15,329 bases of DNA, taken from contig JAWBAI010000006.1 in the NCBI GenBank assembly GCA_038816475.1, positions 59,730-75,058 of the forward strand, given 5' to 3'. Every line of letters starts with the position of its first letter. Within the stretch, counting starts at the first letter, position 1. The stretch is from Desulfurococcaceae archaeon. Its GTDB lineage: Archaea > Thermoproteota > Thermoprotei_A > Sulfolobales > Desulfurococcaceae. The position numbers were made by a program, and so were the translations under genes. This document shows positions 1,168 through 14,465 of the stretch, in pieces. Under the pieces are notes generated by a model. The model was not told the origin of the DNA, did not search any database, and saw nothing but the letters and a program-made list of their open reading frames with translations.

Positions 1168-3279
1168 CTACTTAACCTTGGATATTCTACCGGGCCTCGG
1201 GTAGTACACTTCACCGCTTCTGTAGAGCTCGTGAACAGTTTCTTGAACAAAGTCCTTTTCGAAGCCCTCGTCGGCAGCTCTTTTGATCAGCTCGTTGAAC
1301 TCTATTTCACCACCAACACTGTCAAGCAGCTTCATAAGCCACTCTCTGAACTTCTTCTTCTTCAGCCTCGTTGACGATGATATACCTGTTTCAAGGAGGT
1401 CTATGTCTAGCCTACCACTCTCAACGTCCAACCCCGCTCTCGAAAGGCTAACCATGACTAGTCTTATGGCTTCCTCAACGTCCTCAATGGTAGCTTTGGT
1501 CTTCAAAGCCATCTTAGCGTGAGCTTCTGCAAGCCTAATTATAGCTTCCAGCTGCCTCGGCGTGATAGCAATTGCTGATACACCCCCCTCGGCTGTGAGT
1601 GACGCTTTCCTTAAACTCGTGTAGAACTCCTCAACGAGCTTTGAAGCCTCAGGTGTTAACTGTGGTCTAATGTACCTTCTAGCGTAGCTAATGTACTTCT
1701 TGAGTAGCTGTGGATCTATGAATCCTCTAGCTTTCTCAGCATCCGTGTGAATCCCGAGAATGTGCCTGGCCAGTCTTCTGTCCTGCTCTTCGCTGGGTAT
1801 GTCCTGAACTATGAATATCAGGTCGAACCTTGAAAGGATGGTTACGGGTAGATCAATGTTCTTTGACACGGGTTGAGTAGAATCGTAGCGTCCGTACTTG
1901 GGGTTACCAGCAGCTATAACGGTTGTTCTAGCGTTCAACCTTGCAACAATACCGGCTTTCGCTATGCTAACAGTCTGCTGCTCGAGAGCCTCGTGAATAG
2001 CTGTTCTATCCTCGTCTCTCATCTTGTCTATCTCGTCTATGGATGCTACACCACCATCAGCAAGCACCAGTGCACCAGCCTCCAGGTAGTACTCACCTGT
2101 CATCTTGTCTCTTAGAACAGTTGCTGTTAAACCAGCTGCTGTTGAACCCTTACCACTAGTGTAGAGTCCTCTAGGTGCAACTCTGGCTGCAAACTGGAGT
2201 AACTGAGACTTCGCAGTACCAGGGTCACCTATGATCAACACGTGTATATCACCTCTGATCCTTGTTCCATCAGCAAGAATCTTCGGAGTTCCACCGAACA
2301 TCGCTAAAGCAATTGCTTCCTTGATGTCCCAGTGACCGTAGATACCCGGTGCAATGCTAGCTATGATCTTCTCCCTTATCCATGGATCCCTCGCAAGCTC
2401 CCTGATCTTCTCCTCGTCCTCCCTTGTTATCACGATCTCCTCTAGAACCTTCTCTTGAACCTCAACGTGGTTAACGTCGATGTAGAAGGAGAACACCGTT
2501 TTTGCTCCACGCTTATCAGGCTGAGAAGTCAGCGGAGTAACCCTTAGTACACCTGTTACAACAACCCTGTCTCCGGGTCTAACGATGTCAACGATATCGC
2601 TCGTGAGAACAGCCTCAGTGGATCGGGGTATTTGACCACCAGGAACCTCCTCGGGTTTCTCCTGGATAACTATCTTCTGCCAGTCAACGAACTCGCTTCC
2701 TTCAACTACGAGGTCGAACTTGGCAGGCTTATGGCACTCTAGGCAGTATGGTGGTTTATCGATTCTATCGGTAAACTCTAATCCAGACTCCTTTGGTGGG
2801 TACATGAAGTAGTGTACTTCACCGTACTCTGTTACATGCCTGTACATTGCTCTAACAAGCTTAGCGTCCACTCTGGTGATCCTTGTTACTATCCCCTCAA
2901 CGGCAACGAACTTACCGATGTAATCGCTGGACAGCTCTCTGATCCTGTGAGCCTTTGGAGGATTTCTCACTCTCACGTAGAACTTTCTAACCGTCTTAGC
3001 GTACTCCGGGTTATCCCTCTCCACGATGTACTTGAGCGCGTTGTTGAAGGCTTCGAGAACCTTCGTTGGCTCATCCAGAAGCTTGTTCGCGAGGTCTCTG
3101 TTGTACAGTATGAGGTCTTCAAAGTCAACAACAAGGCTTCTCTGCCCCATCTTGATCATTTGCCAAACTCTATCGTGGTACTTTAAGTAGCCATCGGGTG
3201 TTCTGAAGTTCTCCACGAAGTTGACGAACATCATTGAGTAGTCCATGTGAACCTCTGAAGTAGTCCTCGCTTCACTCAT
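1168..3279 (-). CDS. mcm: Replicative DNA helicase MCM (about 703 aa, no intein)
   Basis: Walker A GDPGTAKS, Walker B IDEIDKM, arginine finger SRFD, AAGLTA motif, N-terminal Zn site, C-terminal winged helix. Start moved to ATG 3279 (MSEART), which overlaps the gins stop (ATGAGTGA) and has SD GAGGTTG; ATG 3246 is an alternative. Confidence 0.98.
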   Translation of the reverse strand: MSEARTTSEVHMDYSMMFVNFVENFRTPDGYLKYHDRVWQMIKMGQRSLVVDFEDLILYNRDLANKLLDEPTKVLEAFNNALKYIVERDNPEYAKTVRKFYVRVRNPPKAHRIRELSSDYIGKFVAVEGIVTRITRVDAKLVRAMYRHVTEYGEVHYFMYPPKESGLEFTDRIDKPPYCLECHKPAKFDLVVEGSEFVDWQKIVIQEKPEEVPGGQIPRSTEAVLTSDIVDIVRPGDRVVVTGVLRVTPLTSQPDKRGAKTVFSFYIDVNHVEVQEKVLEEIVITREDEEKIRELARDPWIREKIIASIAPGIYGHWDIKEAIALAMFGGTPKILADGTRIRGDIHVLIIGDPGTAKSQLLQFAARVAPRGLYTSGKGSTAAGLTATVLRDKMTGEYYLEAGALVLADGGVASIDEIDKMRDEDRTAIHEALEQQTVSIAKAGIVARLNARTTVIAAGNPKYGRYDSTQPVSKNIDLPVTILSRFDLIFIVQDIPSEEQDRRLARHILGIHTDAEKARGFIDPQLLKKYISYARRYIRPQLTPEASKLVEEFYTSLRKASLTAEGGVSAIAITPRQLEAIIRLAEAHAKMALKTKATIEDVEEAIRLVMVSLSRAGLDVESGRLDIDLLETGISSSTRLKKKKFREWLMKLLDSVGGEIEFNELIKRAADEGFEKDFVQETVHELYRSGEVYYPRPGRISKVK

Positions 3280-3865
3280 GCTTTTCAACCTCGAAAACCC
3301 TTGAGTTGAAGATGTCAAGAATCGTTTTCAGAACAGTGTAGAGGTGCTTCTCCTCCTCGCTCAAGTTGACCAGCATCTCCGGTGTAACCTGCTGAACGCT
3401 GAGCAGGGTGAGTATCTTCGAAAGCCTAGTTCTGTGGAGTACCTTGGTGTTAGTAACAAGCTTGTCGATCCTATCGGCGAGGTCGCGAGCCTTTGAAAGA
3501 CTATCAACGCTCTTGTACTTTCTGAACAGTGAGCTGATCTCCTGCTTGATCATCAGGTAGAAGTAGCCGGGCAGCTTCTCGAACTTCGGAGAGCTCCTTG
3601 AGCGTGTTTCGTTGAAAGCAAGTGTAGCTATCTTGGGTAAGTCAACGCCCTCCTCAACAGGCCGAGCCATGTTGTTCTCTATAAATTGCAGTGCGAGCCA
3701 GCGTGGAACAGTGTACTCTGCACCTCGAACAAGCTCCACGTAGTCGTCCTCGATGAAGACCTTCTGCGAAGAACCAAGGTATGCTATCTTCACATGCTCC
3801 TCCTCGAACTCCCGCTCTACTAAATCAAGCAGAAGTGTACTCAGAACCTCGATTAAGCCATTCAA
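3272..3865 (-). CDS. gins23: GINS complex subunit, Gins23 (Psf2/Psf3-like) type
   Basis: N-terminal beta B-domain (VELVRGAEYTVPRWLA) followed by a helical A-domain (KLPGYFYL); directly upstream of and overlapping mcm; TTG start with SD GGAGG. Confidence 0.85.
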   Translation of the reverse strand: MNGLIEVLSTLLLDLVEREFEEEHVKIAYLGSSQKVFIEDDYVELVRGAEYTVPRWLALQFIENNMARPVEEGVDLPKIATLAFNETRSRSSPKFEKLPGYFYLMIKQEISSLFRKYKSVDSLSKARDLADRIDKLVTNTKVLHRTRLSKILTLLSVQQVTPEMLVNLSEEEKHLYTVLKTILDIFNSRVFEVEKHE

Positions 3866-3957
3866 GCCTTATCCTCCGGTGTATATCTGGTCTACCCCCT
3901 TTATTACCCTTGAATAGTGGATATGTTTAAAGGGATTGCACACAAGGTGTACTAGCT
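3866..3957. promoter_or_regulatory. Divergent promoter region, gins23-mcm / rfcS-rfcL
   Basis: Plus-strand TATA-like TTTAAAG at 3926-3932, about 26 nt before the rfcS TTG; minus-strand TAATAAAG at 3906-3899. Confidence 0.55.
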
Positions 3958-4926
3958 TTGAGCGAGCTTCTCTGGGCTGAGAAGTACAGGCCGAGATCAC
4001 TCGTTGAGGTTGTTAACCAGAAGGAGGTCGTGGAGAGACTCAAGAAGTTCGTAGCCGAGAAGAACGTTCCACACATGCTCTTTGCTGGTCCACCCGGCAC
4101 GGGTAAAACAACGGTTGCTCACGCTTTTGCACACGATCTGTACGGTGAGAACTACAGGCAGTACATGCTTGAACTCAACGCTTCCGACGAGAGAAGCATA
4201 ACGGTTATAAGGTCCAAGGTCAAGGAGTTCGCTCGTTCAAAGGTCACAGGTGAAATACCCTTCAAGATAGTTCTGCTGGACGAAGCAGACAACATGACCG
4301 CGGATGCTCAGCAAGCTCTCAGAAGACTAATGGAGCTCTACTCCGCGAACACAAGGTTCATACTCACAGCGAACTACCCGAGCAAGATAATTGAGCCCAT
4401 ACAGAGCAGGTGCGCAGTCTTCAGGTTTACACCACTCAAGAAAGAGGATGTTGTTGGTAGACTAATGTACATATGTCAAAACGAGAACATAAAGTGCTAC
4501 GATAAAGCACTAGAGCTCATATACGAGCTATCCGAGGGTGATATGAGGAAAGCTATAAACATACTTCAGTCAGCAGCTGCTATCAGCGATGTAACAGAGG
4601 AAGCTGTCTTCAAGGTTGTTGGTTTAGCTCACCCGAGGGAAGTAAGAGAAATGCTTCAGTTAGCACTCGCAGGGAACTTCTTCGAGGCTCGAAAGAAGCT
4701 GAGAGACCTGATGATAACCTACGGTTTAAGCGGACTGGACATAATTAAGCAGATACACAGAGAAGTGTTCAGCACTGAGCTGAAGATACCCGAGGACCTC
4801 AAAATACTCATTGCAGACTACGCTGGTGAAATACAGTTCAGGCTCACAGAGGGTGCTGACGACGAAGTACAGCTGAACGCTTTCCTAGCAAGGTTAGCCT
4901 TGATCGGCAGAAAGCTAAAGGTGTAG
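3958..4926 (+). CDS. rfcS: Replication factor C small subunit
   Basis: WAEKYRP, Walker A GPPGTGKT, ELNASDER, Walker B LLDEAD, IQSRC motif, GDMRKAIN; TTG start; no intein. Confidence 0.98.
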   Translation: MSELLWAEKYRPRSLVEVVNQKEVVERLKKFVAEKNVPHMLFAGPPGTGKTTVAHAFAHDLYGENYRQYMLELNASDERSITVIRSKVKEFARSKVTGEIPFKIVLLDEADNMTADAQQALRRLMELYSANTRFILTANYPSKIIEPIQSRCAVFRFTPLKKEDVVGRLMYICQNENIKCYDKALELIYELSEGDMRKAINILQSAAAISDVTEEAVFKVVGLAHPREVREMLQLALAGNFFEARKKLRDLMITYGLSGLDIIKQIHREVFSTELKIPEDLKILIADYAGEIQFRLTEGADDEVQLNAFLARLALIGRKLKV

Positions 4927-4933
4927 AAGCTTC

Positions 4934-6208
4934 TTGAGCGAGTACTTACCCTGGGTAGTAAAGTACAGACCGAAAACGCTGGACGAGTACGTAGACCAGG
5001 AGGAAGCCAAGCAGAAGCTCGTAGCGTGGCTGAAGAGCTGGCTCAGTGGTAAACCACCAGAGAAGAAAGCACTACTACTACATGGTCCAGCTGGCTGTGG
5101 TAAAACAAGCTTGGTGGAGGCTGCAGCTAGATCACTCGGATTCGAGATCTTCGAGATGAACGCTAGTGACAACCGGAGGAAAGTCGACATAGAGAGAATG
5201 GCCAAGATGGCTTCTCAAACAACAAGCCTCAGAGGTAAAAAGAAGATAATACTACTCGACGAGATAGACGGGTTAGACCCCCACTCTGATGCTGGCGGAG
5301 TAGAATCACTTGTCATGGTGATAAAGGAGACAAAAAACCCAATAGTAATGACTGCTAACAACCCCTACCGAGAGCACTTGAAACCCCTGAGAGACCTGGA
5401 CATAGTCGAAGTTGTAGCAATGAAAAGACTTAAGGAACAGGACATAGCTACTGTTTTAGATAGGATATGCAAAGCAGAGAAGATCTACTGTGAACAGCAA
5501 GCACTGAAGGAGATAGCAAGGAGATGCGAGGGCGATCTAAGAAGCGCCATAAACGACCTAGAAGCAGCAGCTGCTCTAAACAAGAGGGTAACACTGGAGT
5601 CGGTTAAAGCTGTTGCAGCATACAGAGATAGAACCTATGCACCGTGGGAAGCTCTCAGCAAGCTCTTCAACGCCAAGTACATATTCCAAGCAAAGGAAGC
5701 AGCTACGTCTACCGATTTGACGCCGGATGAGTTAATGACGTGGATAAATGAGCACATACCAACATACTACGAAAAACCGGACGATGTGTGGAGAGCCTAC
5801 GAAGCACTGAGCAGAGCGGACGTTTACATGGGTAGAATCATCAGGACCCAGAACTGGGATCTCCTTAGCTACGCACTGGACATGATGGGACCTGGAGTAG
5901 CCTTTGCAAGGCATGAGTACAAGTTCAAGTGGAAAGCGTTCAAAATGCCCGAGAGAATAAAGCTGTTGTCTGAAACCAAGAGGTCAAGGGAGTACAGAGA
6001 AGCACTCGCAGAGCACCTCGCTAAGAGGCTTCTGACGAGCAAAGCCGTTGTTAAATCCGATGTAATACCCTACCTGAGGATCATATTTGAGAACAACCCG
6101 AAGCTTGCAGCTGCTATATCGAGAGAGTACGGTATACCCGAGGAGATAATCAAGTGGCTTGCAGGAAACAGAGCTAGAGAAGTACTGAGCTACATGAGGA
6201 AGAAGTAG
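4934..6208 (+). CDS. rfcL: Replication factor C large subunit
   Basis: PWVVKYRP, GPAGCGKT, EMNASD, LLDEID, GDLRSAINDL, LSRADVY; 7 nt downstream of rfcS; TTG start. Confidence 0.97.
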   Translation: MSEYLPWVVKYRPKTLDEYVDQEEAKQKLVAWLKSWLSGKPPEKKALLLHGPAGCGKTSLVEAAARSLGFEIFEMNASDNRRKVDIERMAKMASQTTSLRGKKKIILLDEIDGLDPHSDAGGVESLVMVIKETKNPIVMTANNPYREHLKPLRDLDIVEVVAMKRLKEQDIATVLDRICKAEKIYCEQQALKEIARRCEGDLRSAINDLEAAAALNKRVTLESVKAVAAYRDRTYAPWEALSKLFNAKYIFQAKEAATSTDLTPDELMTWINEHIPTYYEKPDDVWRAYEALSRADVYMGRIIRTQNWDLLSYALDMMGPGVAFARHEYKFKWKAFKMPERIKLLSETKRSREYREALAEHLAKRLLTSKAVVKSDVIPYLRIIFENNPKLAAAISREYGIPEEIIKWLAGNRAREVLSYMRKK

Positions 6209-7645: not shown

Positions 7646-7796
7646 AGCGATCACTTCGATCGAACTCCACGATGTGAGTAGACTAGACAGCTTAATAATA
7701 GTAATAAGCACGAGTTGCTAGCATCGGTGAGAAACCCCTTCTTTAATCCCTTTTAACAAACAACAATAGTCATGGGTTTAACCCCGGTGTAGTGCT
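7646..7796. promoter_or_regulatory. Divergent promoter region, thiI / purA operon
   Basis: Minus-strand TATTATTAAG around 7692-7702; plus-strand CTTTAAT and TTTTAAC around 7741-7757; GGTG before the purA TTG. Confidence 0.45.
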
Positions 7797-8810
7797 TTGC
7801 TAACGCTTGTTGTAGGAGGATTCTTCGGGGACGAGGGCAAGGGTAAAGTAGCAGCTTACTTAGCTCTCGCTGGAGACTACAACTACGCTGTGAGAACAGG
7901 CGCAATAAACGCGGGTCACACGGTGGTGTTCAACGGAGTAGTCTACAAGCTGAGGACAGTATCAGCGGGCTTCGTGAACACTAGAACAAGACTACTGATA
8001 CCACCTGGTGCACTGATAAAACTGGACGTGTTCCACAGGGAGGTTGAAGCACTCAGAGTTAAGGATAGAGTTTGCGTAGACTACCAAACAGGGGTTATCG
8101 AGGACGCCCACGTTGAAGCCGAGAAGAGAGACCCTGTGCTTGCGAGGATCGGTTCTACGTTCCAGGGTGTTGGTGCAGCAACAGCGGATAGAGCTCTGAG
8201 AAGACTTAAGCTAGCAGGGGATTTCGAAGAGCTCAGAAGCTACCTCTGCGACGTTCCGGGAACGGTGAACAGTGCATTAGACAGAGGTGAAAAGGTCTTG
8301 ATAGAAGGTACTCAGGGAACTTTCCTATCTCTTTACCACGGTACATACCCCTATGTTACAAGCAGAGATACAACTGCATCAGCACTGCTGTCTGAAACCG
8401 GTGTTGGACCGAGGAGAGTGGACAAGGTTGTTGTAGTGTTCAAATCCTATGTTACGAGAGTTGGTGAAGGACCATTGGAGAACGAGCTATCACCGGAGGA
8501 AGCTTCGAGGAGAGGCTGGGTCGAAATCGCGACGGTAACTTCCAGGCGAAGAAGAGTAGCCCCATTCAACTTTGAGCTTGCCAAAAGAGCCGTGATGCTG
8601 AACTCGGCAACGCACATCGCGATCACGAAGCTCGACGCACTGTTCCCGGAGATACGAGGAGTGAGAGAGTGGAGTAAACTACCGGCTGAGGTCAAACGCT
8701 GGATCGAGGACGTGGAGTCAGTGCTCAAAACTCCTGTTTTGATAATTGGTACAGGTGAAGAGGTTCTAGATACCATTGATAGATCACGTGACCTCGGCGT
8801 TGAGCTATGA
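7797..8810 (+). CDS. purA: Adenylosuccinate synthetase (short archaeal form)
   Basis: GDEGKGK, NAGHTV, EGTQG, GTYPYVTS, YVTRVGEGP, TVTSRRRR, ITKLD. Confidence 0.98.
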   Translation: MLTLVVGGFFGDEGKGKVAAYLALAGDYNYAVRTGAINAGHTVVFNGVVYKLRTVSAGFVNTRTRLLIPPGALIKLDVFHREVEALRVKDRVCVDYQTGVIEDAHVEAEKRDPVLARIGSTFQGVGAATADRALRRLKLAGDFEELRSYLCDVPGTVNSALDRGEKVLIEGTQGTFLSLYHGTYPYVTSRDTTASALLSETGVGPRRVDKVVVVFKSYVTRVGEGPLENELSPEEASRRGWVEIATVTSRRRRVAPFNFELAKRAVMLNSATHIAITKLDALFPEIRGVREWSKLPAEVKRWIEDVESVLKTPVLIIGTGEEVLDTIDRSRDLGVEL

Positions 8811-10219
8811 AGGAGTTCGACGTAGCTATCGTAGGTGCAGGTGCAGCCGGTCTCTTCGCAGCTGTTGAGCTCGTTAAGCAGGGTGTTCAGGGGAGGAGGA
8901 TAGCGATATTCGAGAAGGGAGCACACATTGAAGCAAGAAGATGCCCTATGGCTAACAGGTACACCAATAGAGCATACGGTCAAGAGTGCAGAAACTGCAG
9001 TCCATGCCACGTAGTCTACGGCGTGGGAGGAGCTGGAACATTCAGCAGCGGTATAGTGAACCTCAGACCAGATGTCGGTGGAGAACTAGACAAGCTTCTG
9101 GGAAGCTGGGAGGATGCCGAGGACGTTATCTCGTACCTTGATAAGCTCCTTGTTGAGTTCGGTGCACCCGAGAACACGCTTATTGTACCAGACCCTAAGA
9201 AAACCAAGAGCATTGAAAAACTCGCCGCGAAGGCTGGAGCCAAGTACATACCTGTACCACAGAGGGTCCTCGGAACCGAAAACGTGATCAAGGTGGTTGA
9301 GAACATCACCAAGTTCCTCGAGAACGCTGGTGTATCCATCTTCACTCTTACACCGGTTGAACGCGTTGAGAAGAGTCAGGAAGGACTCTTCAAGCTTACA
9401 ACAACACGGGGAGACTACTACGCTAGGAGAGTACTACTGGCTCCCGGAAGAGGTGGAGCCCACTGGTTCAGGCAAGTAGCGGAGACACTGGGCATAGAGG
9501 TTGAACCAACACCACTAGACATCGGTGTCAGAGTTGAAGTACCCTACTACGTAGCAGAGCACGTTACCAGTGTTAACTTCGACCCCAAGATAATCCTTTA
9601 CACCAAGTCCTACGACGACATGGTGAGAACTTTCTGCACTAACCCCCAGGGCTACGTTCTCAAGGAGCAGTACGAGGATGGAACAGTGGGTGTCAACGGT
9701 GCAACCTTCAACACAGCTAAGAGCAAGAACACGAACTTCGCACTTCTGGTAACCCTCAAACTCACTGTTCCATACCAGGATGTGCTCGAGCTGGGGAAGT
9801 CTATTGCAAGGATAGCAACAAAGGTTGGCATGGGTAAACCACTAATTCAGAGGCTTGGAGACCTGGAGAAAGGTAGAAGAAGCACTTGGGAGAGGATCTC
9901 GAGAAGCATCATAACTCCAACACTGAGAGATGTTACACCCGGTGACATAAGCCTCGTACTCCCCCACAGAGTTGTAGCGAACATTGTAGAAGCCATAGAG
10001 AGGCTGGACACCGTGTACCCTGGTCTCGCGTCTCCTCAAACACTGATCTACGCGCCGGAGATCAAGTACTACAGCGTGAGAGCAAAAGTCAACATAGACT
10101 TCGAAACAAGTGTTCCAGGAGTCTACGCAGCTGGTGATGGAGCCGGATTATCGAGGGGGATCAACGGAGCAGCCGCCACTGGAATACTGGCTGCTCGTGG
10201 CATCGCGAAATCGCTCTAG
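8807..10219 (+). CDS. Uncharacterised FAD/NAD(P)-dependent oxidoreductase (COG2509-like) with an N-terminal four-cysteine cluster (probable Fe-S)
   Basis: Rossmann GAGAAG...FEKG, C-x14-C-x2-C-x2-C, GVGGAGTFS, RTFCTNP, GVNG, NTNFALL, EIKYYS, C-terminal GDGAG FAD motif; ATGA overlap with the purA stop. Confidence 0.9.
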   Translation: MKEFDVAIVGAGAAGLFAAVELVKQGVQGRRIAIFEKGAHIEARRCPMANRYTNRAYGQECRNCSPCHVVYGVGGAGTFSSGIVNLRPDVGGELDKLLGSWEDAEDVISYLDKLLVEFGAPENTLIVPDPKKTKSIEKLAAKAGAKYIPVPQRVLGTENVIKVVENITKFLENAGVSIFTLTPVERVEKSQEGLFKLTTTRGDYYARRVLLAPGRGGAHWFRQVAETLGIEVEPTPLDIGVRVEVPYYVAEHVTSVNFDPKIILYTKSYDDMVRTFCTNPQGYVLKEQYEDGTVGVNGATFNTAKSKNTNFALLVTLKLTVPYQDVLELGKSIARIATKVGMGKPLIQRLGDLEKGRRSTWERISRSIITPTLRDVTPGDISLVLPHRVVANIVEAIERLDTVYPGLASPQTLIYAPEIKYYSVRAKVNIDFETSVPGVYAAGDGAGLSRGINGAAATGILAARGIAKSL

Positions 10220-10229
10220 GTGACCTCTC

Positions 10230-11588
10230 ATGAGCACTAGCACCTGCGTGTTCGAGTGGAGGTACGGCTCTAGGGAGATGAGAGAGCTCTTCTCCGTTAG
10301 TAGCATTGTGAAGAAGTACATTGAGGTTGAAAAAGCCCTCGTTAAAGCTCTCGTCAGGGTGGGCATTGCGCCATCGTACTGCATTGAAGAGGTGGAGAAG
10401 TGCAGTAGTAGCGTCGATCCGATGGAGGTGTACAGAAGAGAAGCAGTTACCGGGCACGATATAGCATCACTTGTATTCATTCTCAGCGAGAAGTGCGGTG
10501 AGTGCAGCAGGTTTATTCACTACGGAGCAACAAGCTACGATGTTGTTGACACAGCGTGGTCACTGATACTCAGGGAGGCTCTGGGCTTGATCGAGAGCAA
10601 GCTTAAAAGGGTGATACTCAGGCTATCAGAGCTCGCGGTTGAGTACGCGGACGCTGTGGTTGTTGGTAGAACGCATGGTCAGCACGCACTACCGATCACC
10701 TTCGGCTTCAAGTTCGCAAACTACGCTTACGAGTTAGCCAGAAGCTACGAGAGGCTTCGCGAGCTCTCCAGGAGGCTCATAAGGTTGAAGATGAGCGGAT
10801 CCGTTGGTACAATGGCTTCGTGGGGTCGAATAGCCCTTGAGATCGAGAGAGCTGTATCAGAGGAGCTCGGGCTCGAACCACACGCTGTTACAACACAGGT
10901 TGCACCCAGGGATGGGTTCGCAGAGCTCGTGTCAGATCTCGCAATACTAGCATCACAGCTTGACAGGTTAGCACTCGAGGTTAGAGAACTTTCGAGAACA
11001 GAGATAAGCGAGGTCTACGAGGCTGCTGAGCGAGTTGGTAGCAGTGCTATGCCACACAAGAGAAACCCCGTGGTAGCCGAGAGAATATCGGGTCTTGCAA
11101 AGGTTGTAAGAAGCCTTGTTACGATAGCCCTGGAGAACATTCCACTAATGCACGAGAGAGATCTAACGAACAGCTCATCCGAGAGGATCCTGTTACCTCA
11201 CGCTGTTCTAGCAGTTGACCAGATGCTGGAGGACACGATCAAGCTCCTGGAGACCATGGTCGTAGACTGCGATGCAGCAAGAAGAAACCTTGAGTTAACC
11301 CGAGGAGCCGTGTACAGCGAGCTGCTCGTCACAAGGCTGGTGGACAAGGGCCTCCCGAGGCACAAAGCCTACTACCTGGTCATGGAAACCGTTAAGTCCA
11401 TGAAACCCGGTGAAACACTCGTTGAAGCTGTACTCGGGAACACCGAGTTATCCAGGTACTTTACCCGCGAGGAGCTGCAGATCCTGGTTAAACCTGAATC
11501 CGCATTGGTCAACGTGAAAAAGCTGATCGAGAGAGCACTGGATTACGTTTCCAGCGTTTTGCTCAGCGATGGAGTCCGAGAGCATTGA
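10230..11588 (+). CDS. purB: Adenylosuccinate lyase
   Basis: HYGATS, GRTHGQHA, GSVGT, GSSAMPHKRNP signature, HERDLTNSSSER; SD GGTGA overlapping the upstream stop. Confidence 0.97.
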   Translation: MSTSTCVFEWRYGSREMRELFSVSSIVKKYIEVEKALVKALVRVGIAPSYCIEEVEKCSSSVDPMEVYRREAVTGHDIASLVFILSEKCGECSRFIHYGATSYDVVDTAWSLILREALGLIESKLKRVILRLSELAVEYADAVVVGRTHGQHALPITFGFKFANYAYELARSYERLRELSRRLIRLKMSGSVGTMASWGRIALEIERAVSEELGLEPHAVTTQVAPRDGFAELVSDLAILASQLDRLALEVRELSRTEISEVYEAAERVGSSAMPHKRNPVVAERISGLAKVVRSLVTIALENIPLMHERDLTNSSSERILLPHAVLAVDQMLEDTIKLLETMVVDCDAARRNLELTRGAVYSELLVTRLVDKGLPRHKAYYLVMETVKSMKPGETLVEAVLGNTELSRYFTREELQILVKPESALVNVKKLIERALDYVSSVLLSDGVREH

Positions 11589-13666: not shown

Positions 13667-14011
13667 TCAGCTGTGTTCGCGCGTAGGCTGATAGGATACC
13701 AGGTTTGCCTTCTTCATCTCCTCGAGTACTATTAGCACTGGTTCTACAACCTGGTAGAGTGGTACAAGGGCGTTCTCGGAGATGTCCCTTGTGATGTCTT
13801 CAACGCTGTGCTCTCCATCGCAGAGAGCCCATATGTAGTATGCTAGTGGTGATAGCTCGTAGACCTCCTCTTCGCTGAGCTGAACGTAGAACTTGTCTTT
13901 TTCAACACCAATGAACTCTCCGCTGCGAACGGGCTTCAGGTTCTTCATCTCCATGTACTTATCGTACACATCCTTGACAAGGTGCTTCTTGAGCTCCTCC
14001 TCACTACTCAT
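13667..14011 (-). CDS. Stand-alone PqqD-family (RRE/winged-helix) protein, 114 aa
   Basis: VYELSPLAYYIWALCDGEHSVEDITRDIS...VLEEMKKANLV matches the PqqD pattern (Y-x-L-N...IW-x2-(C/I)DG-x2-(S/T)V-x-(D/E)I). True start is ATG 14011 with SD GAGGTGA, overlapping the ssb stop (ATGAGTAG). Confidence 0.8.
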   Translation of the reverse strand: MSSEEELKKHLVKDVYDKYMEMKNLKPVRSGEFIGVEKDKFYVQLSEEEVYELSPLAYYIWALCDGEHSVEDITRDISENALVPLYQVVEPVLIVLEEMKKANLVSYQPTREHS

Positions 14012-14465
14012 CTTCCTCACCTCTGCTTCTCCTAGGTCTCCCGGTGTAGAAGGGTTTACGCCTAGGTCTAGTTCCAACTTCTCTGGTTCCAGGTTTAGAC
14101 TCGGGTACTTCGCTTGGTACTGAGTCCTGTGGTAGCTGCTTGATCTCTGTGTTCTTGCCAATGTTCAGCTGTATTCTGCCTTTGAACTCTGTAACCCATG
14201 CGTGGGAGATCTCCACGACATCCCCCTGCTTTAGAGAGGTTGCCTTGAATCCCCAGAGTACAGCATCAACGCGGCCTGTTGAATCTCCAACAACAGCATT
14301 TGCTATTGTTCTCGAGCCTTTCTTGGTCTCTATTCTCCTTGGCTTACTCACTTCGAGTACTCTTACTCGAACTGTTACATCCTCCATTCCGGGTTTCAAT
14401 CGCTCTACGCTTACAAGAGAGGGAGGAGATCCCTCCTTTTCTTCTCTACTCGACTCCGAACTCAT
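14004..14465 (-). CDS. ssb: Crenarchaeal single-stranded DNA-binding protein (one OB fold plus an Arg/Gly-rich, acidic tail)
   Basis: VTVRVRVLE, VGDSTGRV, aromatic stacking residues LWG and AWVTEFKG, QLNIG; tail RPRRSRGEEDE. Confidence 0.93.
   Translation of the reverse strand: MSSESSREEKEGSPPSLVSVERLKPGMEDVTVRVRVLEVSKPRRIETKKGSRTIANAVVGDSTGRVDAVLWGFKATSLKQGDVVEISHAWVTEFKGRIQLNIGKNTEIKQLPQDSVPSEVPESKPGTREVGTRPRRKPFYTGRPRRSRGEEDE

Follow-up and report, generated by a model that had tools for sequence, protein, structure and literature searches.

Inosine monophosphate (IMP) dehydrogenase is generally regarded as near-universal and as rate-limiting in guanine nucleotide synthesis. With guanosine monophosphate (GMP) reductase it forms the IMPDH/GMPR family (PF00478; GuaB, GuaC), at the node joining IMP, xanthosine monophosphate (XMP) and GMP. 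Here we describe a flavin adenine dinucleotide (FAD)-dependent protein, in the following called FP, which may act at the same node and is encoded between purA and purB on a 15,329-nt stretch (the window) of contig C6 in the 1.15 Mb genome of a Desulfurococcaceae archaeon (18 contigs, 92% complete). The only close relative of FP with a solved structure is the uncharacterised VP0956 of Vibrio parahaemolyticus (PDB 3NLC; E 1e-20, TM 0.79, Z 40.9, 413 residues aligned). The two share family, fold, FAD domain and the motif with the conserved cysteine, SFCMCPGG of VP0956 aligning to RTFCTNPQG of FP. VP0956 differs in having its own N-terminal extension of about 100 residues and in lacking a four-cysteine insert that is found in FP.

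We favour the explanation that FP is a flavin/Fe-S enzyme, non-homologous to IMPDH/GMPR, which interconverts IMP and XMP, and put it forward tentatively, at somewhat less than an even chance of being correct. The proposed chemistry is like that of the IMPDH/GMPR family, with a cysteine acting at purine C2 and hydride transfer at the IMP-XMP-GMP node, and in the operons of relatives FP stands beside guaA and purA where guaB might be expected. However, the IMPDH/GMPR enzymes are TIM barrels with NAD(P) as hydride carrier, whereas FP has a Rossmann-type FAD fold and would use the flavin as carrier. A comparable case is known from thymidylate synthesis, where ThyX is the flavin-dependent and ThyA the classical thymidylate synthase. 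There a flavoenzyme likewise replaces a non-flavin nucleotide enzyme, with a patchy, largely complementary distribution and some genomes carrying both. Unlike FP, ThyX is biochemically established, and the analogy is best taken as a lead.

The distribution of FP (E <= 1e-20) and PF00478 (E <= 1e-10) was profiled in 251 genomes of the Thermoproteota, the phylum of the window; PF00478 does not separate IMPDH from GMPR. FP was found in 156 and PF00478 in 120 of these genomes, such that 120 have FP only, 84 PF00478 only, 36 both and 11 neither. Many of the genomes are incomplete metagenome-assembled genomes (MAGs), and the presence/absence lists were transcribed by hand. As the sampled genomes are related, Fisher tests overstate significance and family-level counts are fairer: of the 30 families counted by name, FP without PF00478 is found in 16 and the reverse in five, and nine are mixed. 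FP is universal and PF00478 absent in families f4 (FP 9/9, PF00478 0/9), f17 (19/19, 0/19), f18 (11/11, 0/11) and f22 (6/6, 0/6). The opposite holds for f8 (FP 0/34, PF00478 34/34), f16 (0/10, 10/10), f21 (0/12, 12/12), f28 (0/5, 5/5) and f2 (0/6, 6/6). In a second archaeal phylum, sampled around a Methanoperedens genome (n=161), FP is present in 99 and PF00478 in 69 genomes (FP only 79, PF00478 only 49, both 20, neither 13). FP and the IMPDH/GMPR family are largely complementary in these two archaeal phyla. Among FP-bearing archaea from other phyla, four of five lack a real PF00478 hit. The archaeal controls comprised two species with PF21688, the family of FP, and no PF00478 (Sulfolobus acidocaldarius, Methanosarcina acetivorans) and two with PF00478 and no PF21688 (Methanocaldococcus jannaschii, Haloferax volcanii).

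GuaA and PurA were profiled in the Thermoproteota sample, where GuaA (PF00958) is present in 238/251 and PurA (PF00709) in 221/251 genomes. Five of the 13 GuaA-less genomes are 99%-complete Desulfurococcaceae which also lack FP, PF00478 and PurA. On their own, the archaeal presence/absence data point to FP as the supplier of XMP in the absence of GuaB.

Twenty PF00478 proteins were typed with NCBIfam, where the cut-off for canonical IMPDH is 481.5 bits (TIGR01302). Those from the FP-less families f8, f16, f21 and f31 are canonical IMPDH (520–562 bits). In genomes with both genes, some forms are canonical or near-canonical (G069 508, G172 521, f12 and f19 about 473, G024 457) and others are divergent and short CBS-less forms (f15 361–371, G022 314, G211 371, G059 346). 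The GMP-reductase cut-off was reached by none of the 20 proteins. We also observed, in Thermoprotei with neither PurA nor FP, an IMPDH-like protein that is divergent (324–373 bits on TIGR01302) and in some cases of 349–356 aa and without CBS insert (G014, G062 and G078 of f2; G083, G091, G153, G214 and G238 of f28; G170; G188 and G232). Its gene is usually beside guaA where both coordinates were displayed (f2, f28, G170). A separate case is G255 (genome of locus L039), a 3.6 Mb bin labelled Undinarchaeota with FP and a canonical IMPDH (475 bits); this size seems large for Undinarchaeota, and the bin may therefore be mixed or mislabelled.

FP (8807..10219, + strand) is a protein of 470 aa with an ATG start, assigned to COG2509/PF21688 from the PF21688 match, the match to 3NLC and a predicted model. 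PF21688 (FAD-depend_C) scored 45.2 bits (cut-off 27), and 47.4 bits in a genome-wide search. Its only other matches are generic Rossmann-type FAD models, and no NCBIfam model came near its cut-off. PF00478 gave no match, which places FP outside the IMPDH/GMPR family. Proteins 98% identical to FP occur in Desulfurococcaceae MAGs. A limited literature search found no function assigned to COG2509, VP0956 or PF21688, in agreement with the initial annotation, which knew of no assigned substrate for the family; within the same limits, neither a flavin-dependent IMP dehydrogenase nor an archaeal guaB gap was found described.

The AlphaFold model of FP is confident (predicted local distance difference test 93.3, predicted TM score 0.92) and weak only at residues 54–58. 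A structure search with the model identified a two-domain, Rossmann-type FAD oxidoreductase. Beyond 3NLC, the next-nearest folds are HI0933-like proteins and L-aminoacetone oxidase (PDB 4CNJ, 3V76), and urocanate and fumarate reductases (Z 20–22.5), which differ in their substrates and are only 14–20% identical to FP; ketosteroid dehydrogenases and the FAD domain of thioredoxin reductase are further distant neighbours. HI0933 models match FP below cut-off and over no more than its Rossmann segment. The nearest characterised neighbours, such as urocanate and fumarate reductases, ketosteroid dehydrogenases and aminoacetone oxidase, move hydride to or from a carbon beside a carbonyl or imine.

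The sequence features reported in the initial annotation, namely an FAD motif, a C-x14-C-x2-C-x2-C pattern and a conserved-looking RTFCTNP cysteine, are all present. The dinucleotide-binding motif GAGAAG of the FAD domain (residues 10–15; 8834..8851, +) has G10 and G12 invariant in 45/45 diverse family members. FP contains five cysteines in total, C46-x14-C61-x2-C64-x2-C67 and C277. The latter lies in RTFCTNP (residues 274–280; 9626..9646, +), is invariant in 45/45 aligned family members and is a candidate catalytic nucleophile. The first four form a cysteine-rich insert (CP-x12-C-x2-C-x2-C; 8942..9007, +), the same region that contains the weakly predicted residues 54–58. They are complete in 31/45 family members and invariant in 14/14 closer ones, while about 11/45 members lack the insert as a block, as does 3NLC. 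From the conserved motif, a putative [4Fe-4S] site is a reasonable inference; a Pfam scan found no Fer4-type match to the four-cysteine motif, and a zinc site is also compatible. Nine long database representatives, which carry unannotated extensions or pieces of IstB, LeuRS or sigma-70, seem to be chimeric and tell nothing about fused forms.

In the window, purA, FP and purB form a tight co-directional unit on the + strand. The linkage of FP to purA recurs: the two genes are neighbours in at least 17 of the 251 Thermoproteota genomes, a lower bound since the count was read by eye from displayed coordinates. They are co-directional within about 180 nt in nine (G000, G184, G054, G094, G022, G046, G110, G163, G167), within about 0.8 kb in G011 and G181, divergent in five (G051, G146, G043, G250, G019) and 2.5 kb apart in G067. 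These genomes belong to the order of the window and to families f17 and f25; about twenty genomes from other classes carry purA and FP at distant places. In a set of 80 loci from across the prokaryotes (one genome per species, found with a 14-sequence alignment of closer family members), purA adjoins FP in ten, five of them Sulfolobales or Vulcanisaeta and five bacterial (Veillonellaceae, Peptococcaceae, a Bacillota MAG, Desulfotruncus and Desulfovibrionaceae). Linkage to purine genes thus extends beyond this genome and genus, and an objection that the initial annotation had raised against its own proposal, linkage confined to them, does not hold.

Other purine genes are found next to FP as well. 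The gene purP adjoins FP in Sulfolobaceae and ends just upstream of it in three Methanoperedens loci, and in a Bathyarchaeon purE overlaps the FP start. Genome G046 has guaA, a phosphoribosyltransferase (PRTase) gene, purA, FP and purB in this order in an operon on one strand. In G184, of the same genus, guaA-purA-FP-PRTase-pyrF-pyrE lies next to the divergent thiI, and in G054 guaA is divergent to purA-FP-purC-purF. A purine PRTase gene shares an operon with FP in G046, G184 and L007. Our robust conclusion is that the flavoprotein is, in function, part of purine nucleotide metabolism at the IMP branch point.

The gene purB itself lies beside FP only in some Desulfurococcaceae; the recurring neighbours are purA, guaA, PRTase, purP and purE genes. 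This bears on the idea that FP reduces or recycles fumarate coming from PurB, or provides or oxidises aspartate for PurA. The position of FP between purA and purB in the window would fit such a role, as would the presence of fumarate reductase and L-aspartate oxidase among the distant fold neighbours (Z 18–20). We nevertheless consider it highly improbable. Besides the restricted adjacency to purB, the idea gives no reason for the complementarity with IMPDH, and models for fumarate reductase, succinate dehydrogenase and L-aspartate oxidase scored far under their cut-offs on FP (TIGR01816 18 bits against 727, NF005866 18 against 819, NF005636 23 against 723). The suggestion in the initial annotation that the enzyme reduces or recycles fumarate therefore finds no support.

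Elsewhere FP has seemingly unrelated neighbours, such as a peptidylprolyl isomerase in 18 Lachnospiraceae loci and a PCMT in four Nitrospirota loci, and most FP loci of non-Thermoprotei archaea have assorted, unrelated-looking ones. In the five bacterial purA-linked loci PurA is of the long type and the gene order is reversed to FP-purA, as part of an rplI-lon-dnaB-FP-purA block, where dnaB and purA also adjoin without sharing a function. It could be argued from these loci that FP has no function in purine metabolism and that its adjacency to purA is inherited synteny. We judge this unlikely: the links to five purine genes are independent and come from distant lineages with differing gene orders and two PurA types, which chance is unlikely to produce, and the complementarity with IMPDH in two phyla is also hard to obtain by chance.

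One further arrangement was observed in family f15 (L114, G009:C14:11000-22000, and six other genomes), where FP and a CBS-less IMPDH-like gene of short length (about 370 aa) share a strand at a distance of about 5 kb, the interval holding a three-gene ABC transporter and a 436-aa protein without family match. The cluster may serve the uptake and conversion of nucleosides or purines. It could also fit a purine role of FP away from the IMP/XMP/GMP step, such as redox of the free bases hypoxanthine and xanthine ahead of a PRTase, or repair or detoxification of an aberrant purine nucleotide. The PRTase genes in the same operon as FP (G046, G184, L007) are consistent with such a role, as is the dispensability of an apparently accessory FP in Sulfolobus islandicus, described below. 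We regard it as quite unlikely, because a base-level route would be wasteful in organisms making purines de novo and predicts the complementarity with IMPDH less directly, and the many conserved Arg and Lys residues of FP would fit a phosphorylated substrate.

A reversible oxidoreduction between IMP and XMP is favoured because it reconciles the archaeal complementarity, the operons with guaA, purA and PRTase genes, the conserved cysteine and the coexistence with GuaB in anaerobic bacteria. FP would be an FAD and probably [4Fe-4S] oxidoreductase acting on C2 of a purine nucleotide at the IMP branch point. Cys277 would add to purine C2 as the catalytic cysteine of IMPDH/GMPR does, hydride would pass between C2 and N5 of the FAD, and the four-cysteine cluster may carry electrons to or from ferredoxin or a similar low-potential carrier. 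In this salvage-only archaeon, PRTases would make IMP, XMP or GMP from bases, PurA and PurB would convert IMP to AMP (adenosine monophosphate), a GuaA-like enzyme would convert XMP to GMP, and FP alone would connect the pool of IMP with that of XMP and GMP. Where GuaB is absent FP could act as IMP dehydrogenase, and where GuaB is present, its oxidative direction being irreversible, as XMP-to-IMP reductase. The hypoxanthine/xanthine couple lies at about -0.37 V, between NAD and ferredoxin, and on these potentials the FP reaction would be near equilibrium and usable either way.

The initial annotation had proposed an enzyme that supplies IMP reductively from GMP or XMP. The link to purine interconversion is borne out by the neighbourhoods. 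As to direction, operons with guaA and the complementarity with the IMPDH family fit IMP to XMP at least as well as the reductive proposal; for the organism of the window we consider either net direction about equally probable. In a more specific form, COG2509 would be the unrecognised IMP dehydrogenase of archaea that lack GuaB and have GMP synthase, a ferredoxin-linked flavin/Fe-S enzyme which has taken the place of the NAD-dependent TIM-barrel one. In anaerobic bacteria with GuaB it could work in reverse, from XMP to IMP, and substitute for GMP reductase. This fuller version is possible, if doubtful, and could cover Sulfolobus, Thermoproteales, Methanosarcina, Methanoperedens and this Desulfurococcaceae lineage.

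Two other routes through IMP were considered and dropped. FP as the missing crenarchaeal IMP cyclohydrolase was rejected, as the genome of the window keeps FP without PurP, PurC and PurE, and Methanosarcinales are described in one study as having full-length PurH, against such a role (PMC3261824). An XMP-first de novo route with FP as obligatory XMP reductase was set aside because the Saccharolobus (Sulfolobus) solfataricus data are contrary, the same study describing extracts that turn 5-aminoimidazole-4-carboxamide ribonucleotide (AICAR) into IMP (PMC3261824).

Several observations weigh against FP as an IMP/XMP oxidoreductase that stands in for IMPDH. Within the two complementary phyla, FP and PF00478 coexist in 36/251 and 20/161 genomes, some with canonical IMPDH (TIGR01302 508–521 bits). 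FP loss also tracks the loss of PurA, in that FP is absent from 17 of the 20 PurA-negative Thermoproteota listed; it is retained despite PurA absence in G229 and G072, with a truncated copy in G126. This copy, in a complete PurA-less Desulfurococcaceae genome (G126:C1:688848-689897), is a 388-aa frame that matches FP only from residue 114 on, and may be a decaying remnant after loss of a purA-FP unit. In a third archaeal phylum, sampled around a Thermoplasmata genome (n=151; both searches at E <= 1e-40, a threshold differing from the 1e-20 and 1e-10 used above), FP was found in 29 and PF00478 in 19 genomes. Both occur together in three, where the PF00478 proteins are all weak and non-canonical, and 106 genomes contain neither gene. 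Archaea must therefore have some other way of obtaining XMP or GMP, and FP need not be the missing IMPDH merely for want of other candidates. Salvage, a third analogue or distant paralogues could provide the supply in these 106 genomes.

A further objection comes from transposon insertion sequencing (Tn-seq) of S. islandicus M.16.4 on rich dextrin-tryptone (DY) medium, as given in the supplementary tables (PMC6249222). The COG2509/arCOG02231 gene M164_1902, directly downstream of purA and, from its annotation, length and position, presumably the FP orthologue, is non-essential (log2 fold change +0.56, essentiality index, EI, 14), as is PurA (M164_1903, EI 13), whereas GuaA subunit A (M164_0258, EI 1) is essential and subunit B (M164_2138) also has EI 1 (PMC6249222). 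The FP orthologues entered in the table are Saci_0710, SSO0244, M164_1902 and Msed_0014, and a term search of the tables returned no COG0516/0517 gene (PMC6249222). On these data FP is not the sole source of XMP in this strain, unless xanthine is salvaged. The de novo genes for PurF (two copies), PurD, PurL, PurM and PurC are likewise non-essential, and of the COG2236 purine PRTases one is essential and another borderline (PMC6249222). As de novo genes are dispensable and PRTases matter, the rich medium appears to supply purines, which limits the weight of these data. A separate oddity in the same tables is that PurE, PurB (M164_1906, EI 1, essential) and both PurP paralogues (M164_1905, EI 0, essential; M164_1904, EI 1, unassigned) are essential or nearly so, whereas PurF, PurD, PurL, PurM, PurC and PurA are not (PMC6249222). 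This split may be due to toxic intermediates, or to recycling of the AICAR that histidine synthesis yields, and not to a purine requirement.

In bacteria the pattern is different again, and here too it counts against a replacement of IMPDH. Canonical GuaB (539–567 bits) is present in 10/10 FP-bearing bacterial genomes tested. In an anaerobe-rich sample of 121 bacterial genomes FP was found in 95 and PF00478 in 118, and 93 of the 95 FP-positive genomes also carry GuaB, so that FP does not replace IMPDH in bacteria. The active site appears to be the same: in 13 archaeal FPs from genomes without IMPDH, or presumed so, and in nine FPs from GuaB-containing bacteria alike, 89 positions are near-invariant, among them all five cysteines and conserved Arg, Lys, Asp and Glu residues. 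Only ten positions are group-specific, and most of these are conservative substitutions. The chemistry is therefore probably the same in archaea without IMPDH and in bacteria with GuaB.

The bacterial data bring in a strict GMP reductase analogue, which would convert GMP to IMP and NH3 with two electrons and feed PurA and PurB, turning salvaged guanine or xanthine nucleotides into AMP, as the initial annotation had mainly proposed. It would account for FP alongside GuaB, and for purA itself being the commonest neighbour of FP in archaea and bacteria. A short, 328-aa GuaC-like protein occurs in three of the 121 bacterial genomes, two of them without FP hit and one with only a 30%-identical paralogue, against FP in 95/121 overall. 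The absence of FP from 17 of the 20 PurA-negative genomes fits as well, and so does S. islandicus, where the tables cited above show GuaA to be essential but neither PurA nor the orthologue. A low-potential Fe-S/flavin pair would also suit a reduction. The contrast with guaC, however, rests on three large and maybe related genomes, and it is only weakly visible among the 14 controls, Lactococcus lactis having both PF21688 and GuaC; of the anti-correlation with guaC that the initial annotation had looked for, only the part given by these three genomes stands. Its module leading through IMP to AMP likewise fits the Tn-seq results. The complementarity covers the whole IMPDH/GMPR family, most of whose typed members resemble IMP dehydrogenases. 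A strict GMP reductase leaves that complementarity in two archaeal phyla unexplained, along with about 199 sampled archaeal genomes that have GuaA but no known XMP source, among them lineages which we take to be autotrophs. We therefore find it unlikely. The IMP/XMP oxidoreductase remains our preferred explanation, and it is mainly the Tn-seq result and the genomes with neither gene that keep our confidence in it tentative.

The genome of the window is of interest in this context. A genome search found no PurP, PurC or PurE and no PF00478 protein, and accordingly neither canonical guaC nor guaB. As stated in the initial annotation, the window itself contains no de novo purine gene, apart from purB. 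There are ten PRTase hits in the genome. Its only GuaA-like gene, on contig C11, encodes a divergent ATP-pyrophosphatase of 401 aa (231 bits on TIGR00884, cut-off 338.75) without amidotransferase domain, and adjoins an orthologue (51% identity) of the PRTase gene in the G046 operon. The lack of PurP, PurC and PurE together with the ten PRTase hits suggests an organism that lives by purine salvage and retains, along with FP, the branch from IMP to AMP.

Gene calls at the locus agree with the initial reading of purA, FP and purB as one translationally coupled operon, down to the junctions. The unit is preceded by a presumed promoter region of 85 nt between the divergent ThiI gene and purA (7712..7796, +, from the sequence). 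The purA gene (7797..8810, +) has a TTG start with GGTG 7–10 nt ahead of it and encodes an adenylosuccinate synthetase of the short archaeal type, 337 aa (archaeal short-type equivalog NF003295, 499 bits, cut-off 368; PF00709, 232 bits). Its TGA stop overlaps the ATG start of FP as ATGA at 8807–8810. The TAG stop of FP (10217–10219) shares a single G, at 10219, with a GGTGA Shine-Dalgarno-like motif (10219..10223, +), which is followed by purB (10230..11588, +), an adenylosuccinate lyase of 452 aa with an ATG start (equivalog TIGR00928, 409 bits, cut-off 326). Both equivalog scores are above cut-off and confirm the identities given earlier for PurA and PurB. Genome G184, of the same genus, has a full-length guaA (NF000848, 557 bits) between divergent thiI and purA (L113, G184:C21 714-4815); with only 85 nt at this place in the window, guaA has been lost from it.

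In addition to the purine genes and ThiI, the window encodes MCM, a GINS-like protein, the small and large RFC subunits, a ZIP transporter, PyrB, a PqqD-like open reading frame (ORF), an SSB-like OB-fold protein and ferritin. Those for replication form a cluster at 1168–6208, with MCM and the GINS-like (Sld5-domain) gene on the minus strand and the small and large RFC subunits divergent on the plus strand. The PqqD-like ORF (13667–14161, -; PF05402, 36 bits) and the SSB-like OB-fold ORF (14004–14465, -; PF21473/PF01336) overlap by about 158 nt. Given this same-strand overlap, one of the two ORFs probably starts further downstream than called.

Much of the archaeal sample lacks an IMPDH/GMPR homologue yet has GMP synthase, and the 106 of 151 genomes with neither gene in the third phylum point to a further gap at the same step. 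FP can be put to the test as a candidate for a new type of enzyme in purine interconversion. If it does carry out the C2 redox step, a hole in archaeal nucleotide metabolism would be filled, a textbook pathway would gain a new enzyme class with other cofactors and another electron partner, and thousands of genes now named "NAD(P)/FAD-dependent oxidoreductase" would receive a correct annotation. Even with another substrate, FP would define a conserved purine-linked gene with orthologues in tractable model organisms.

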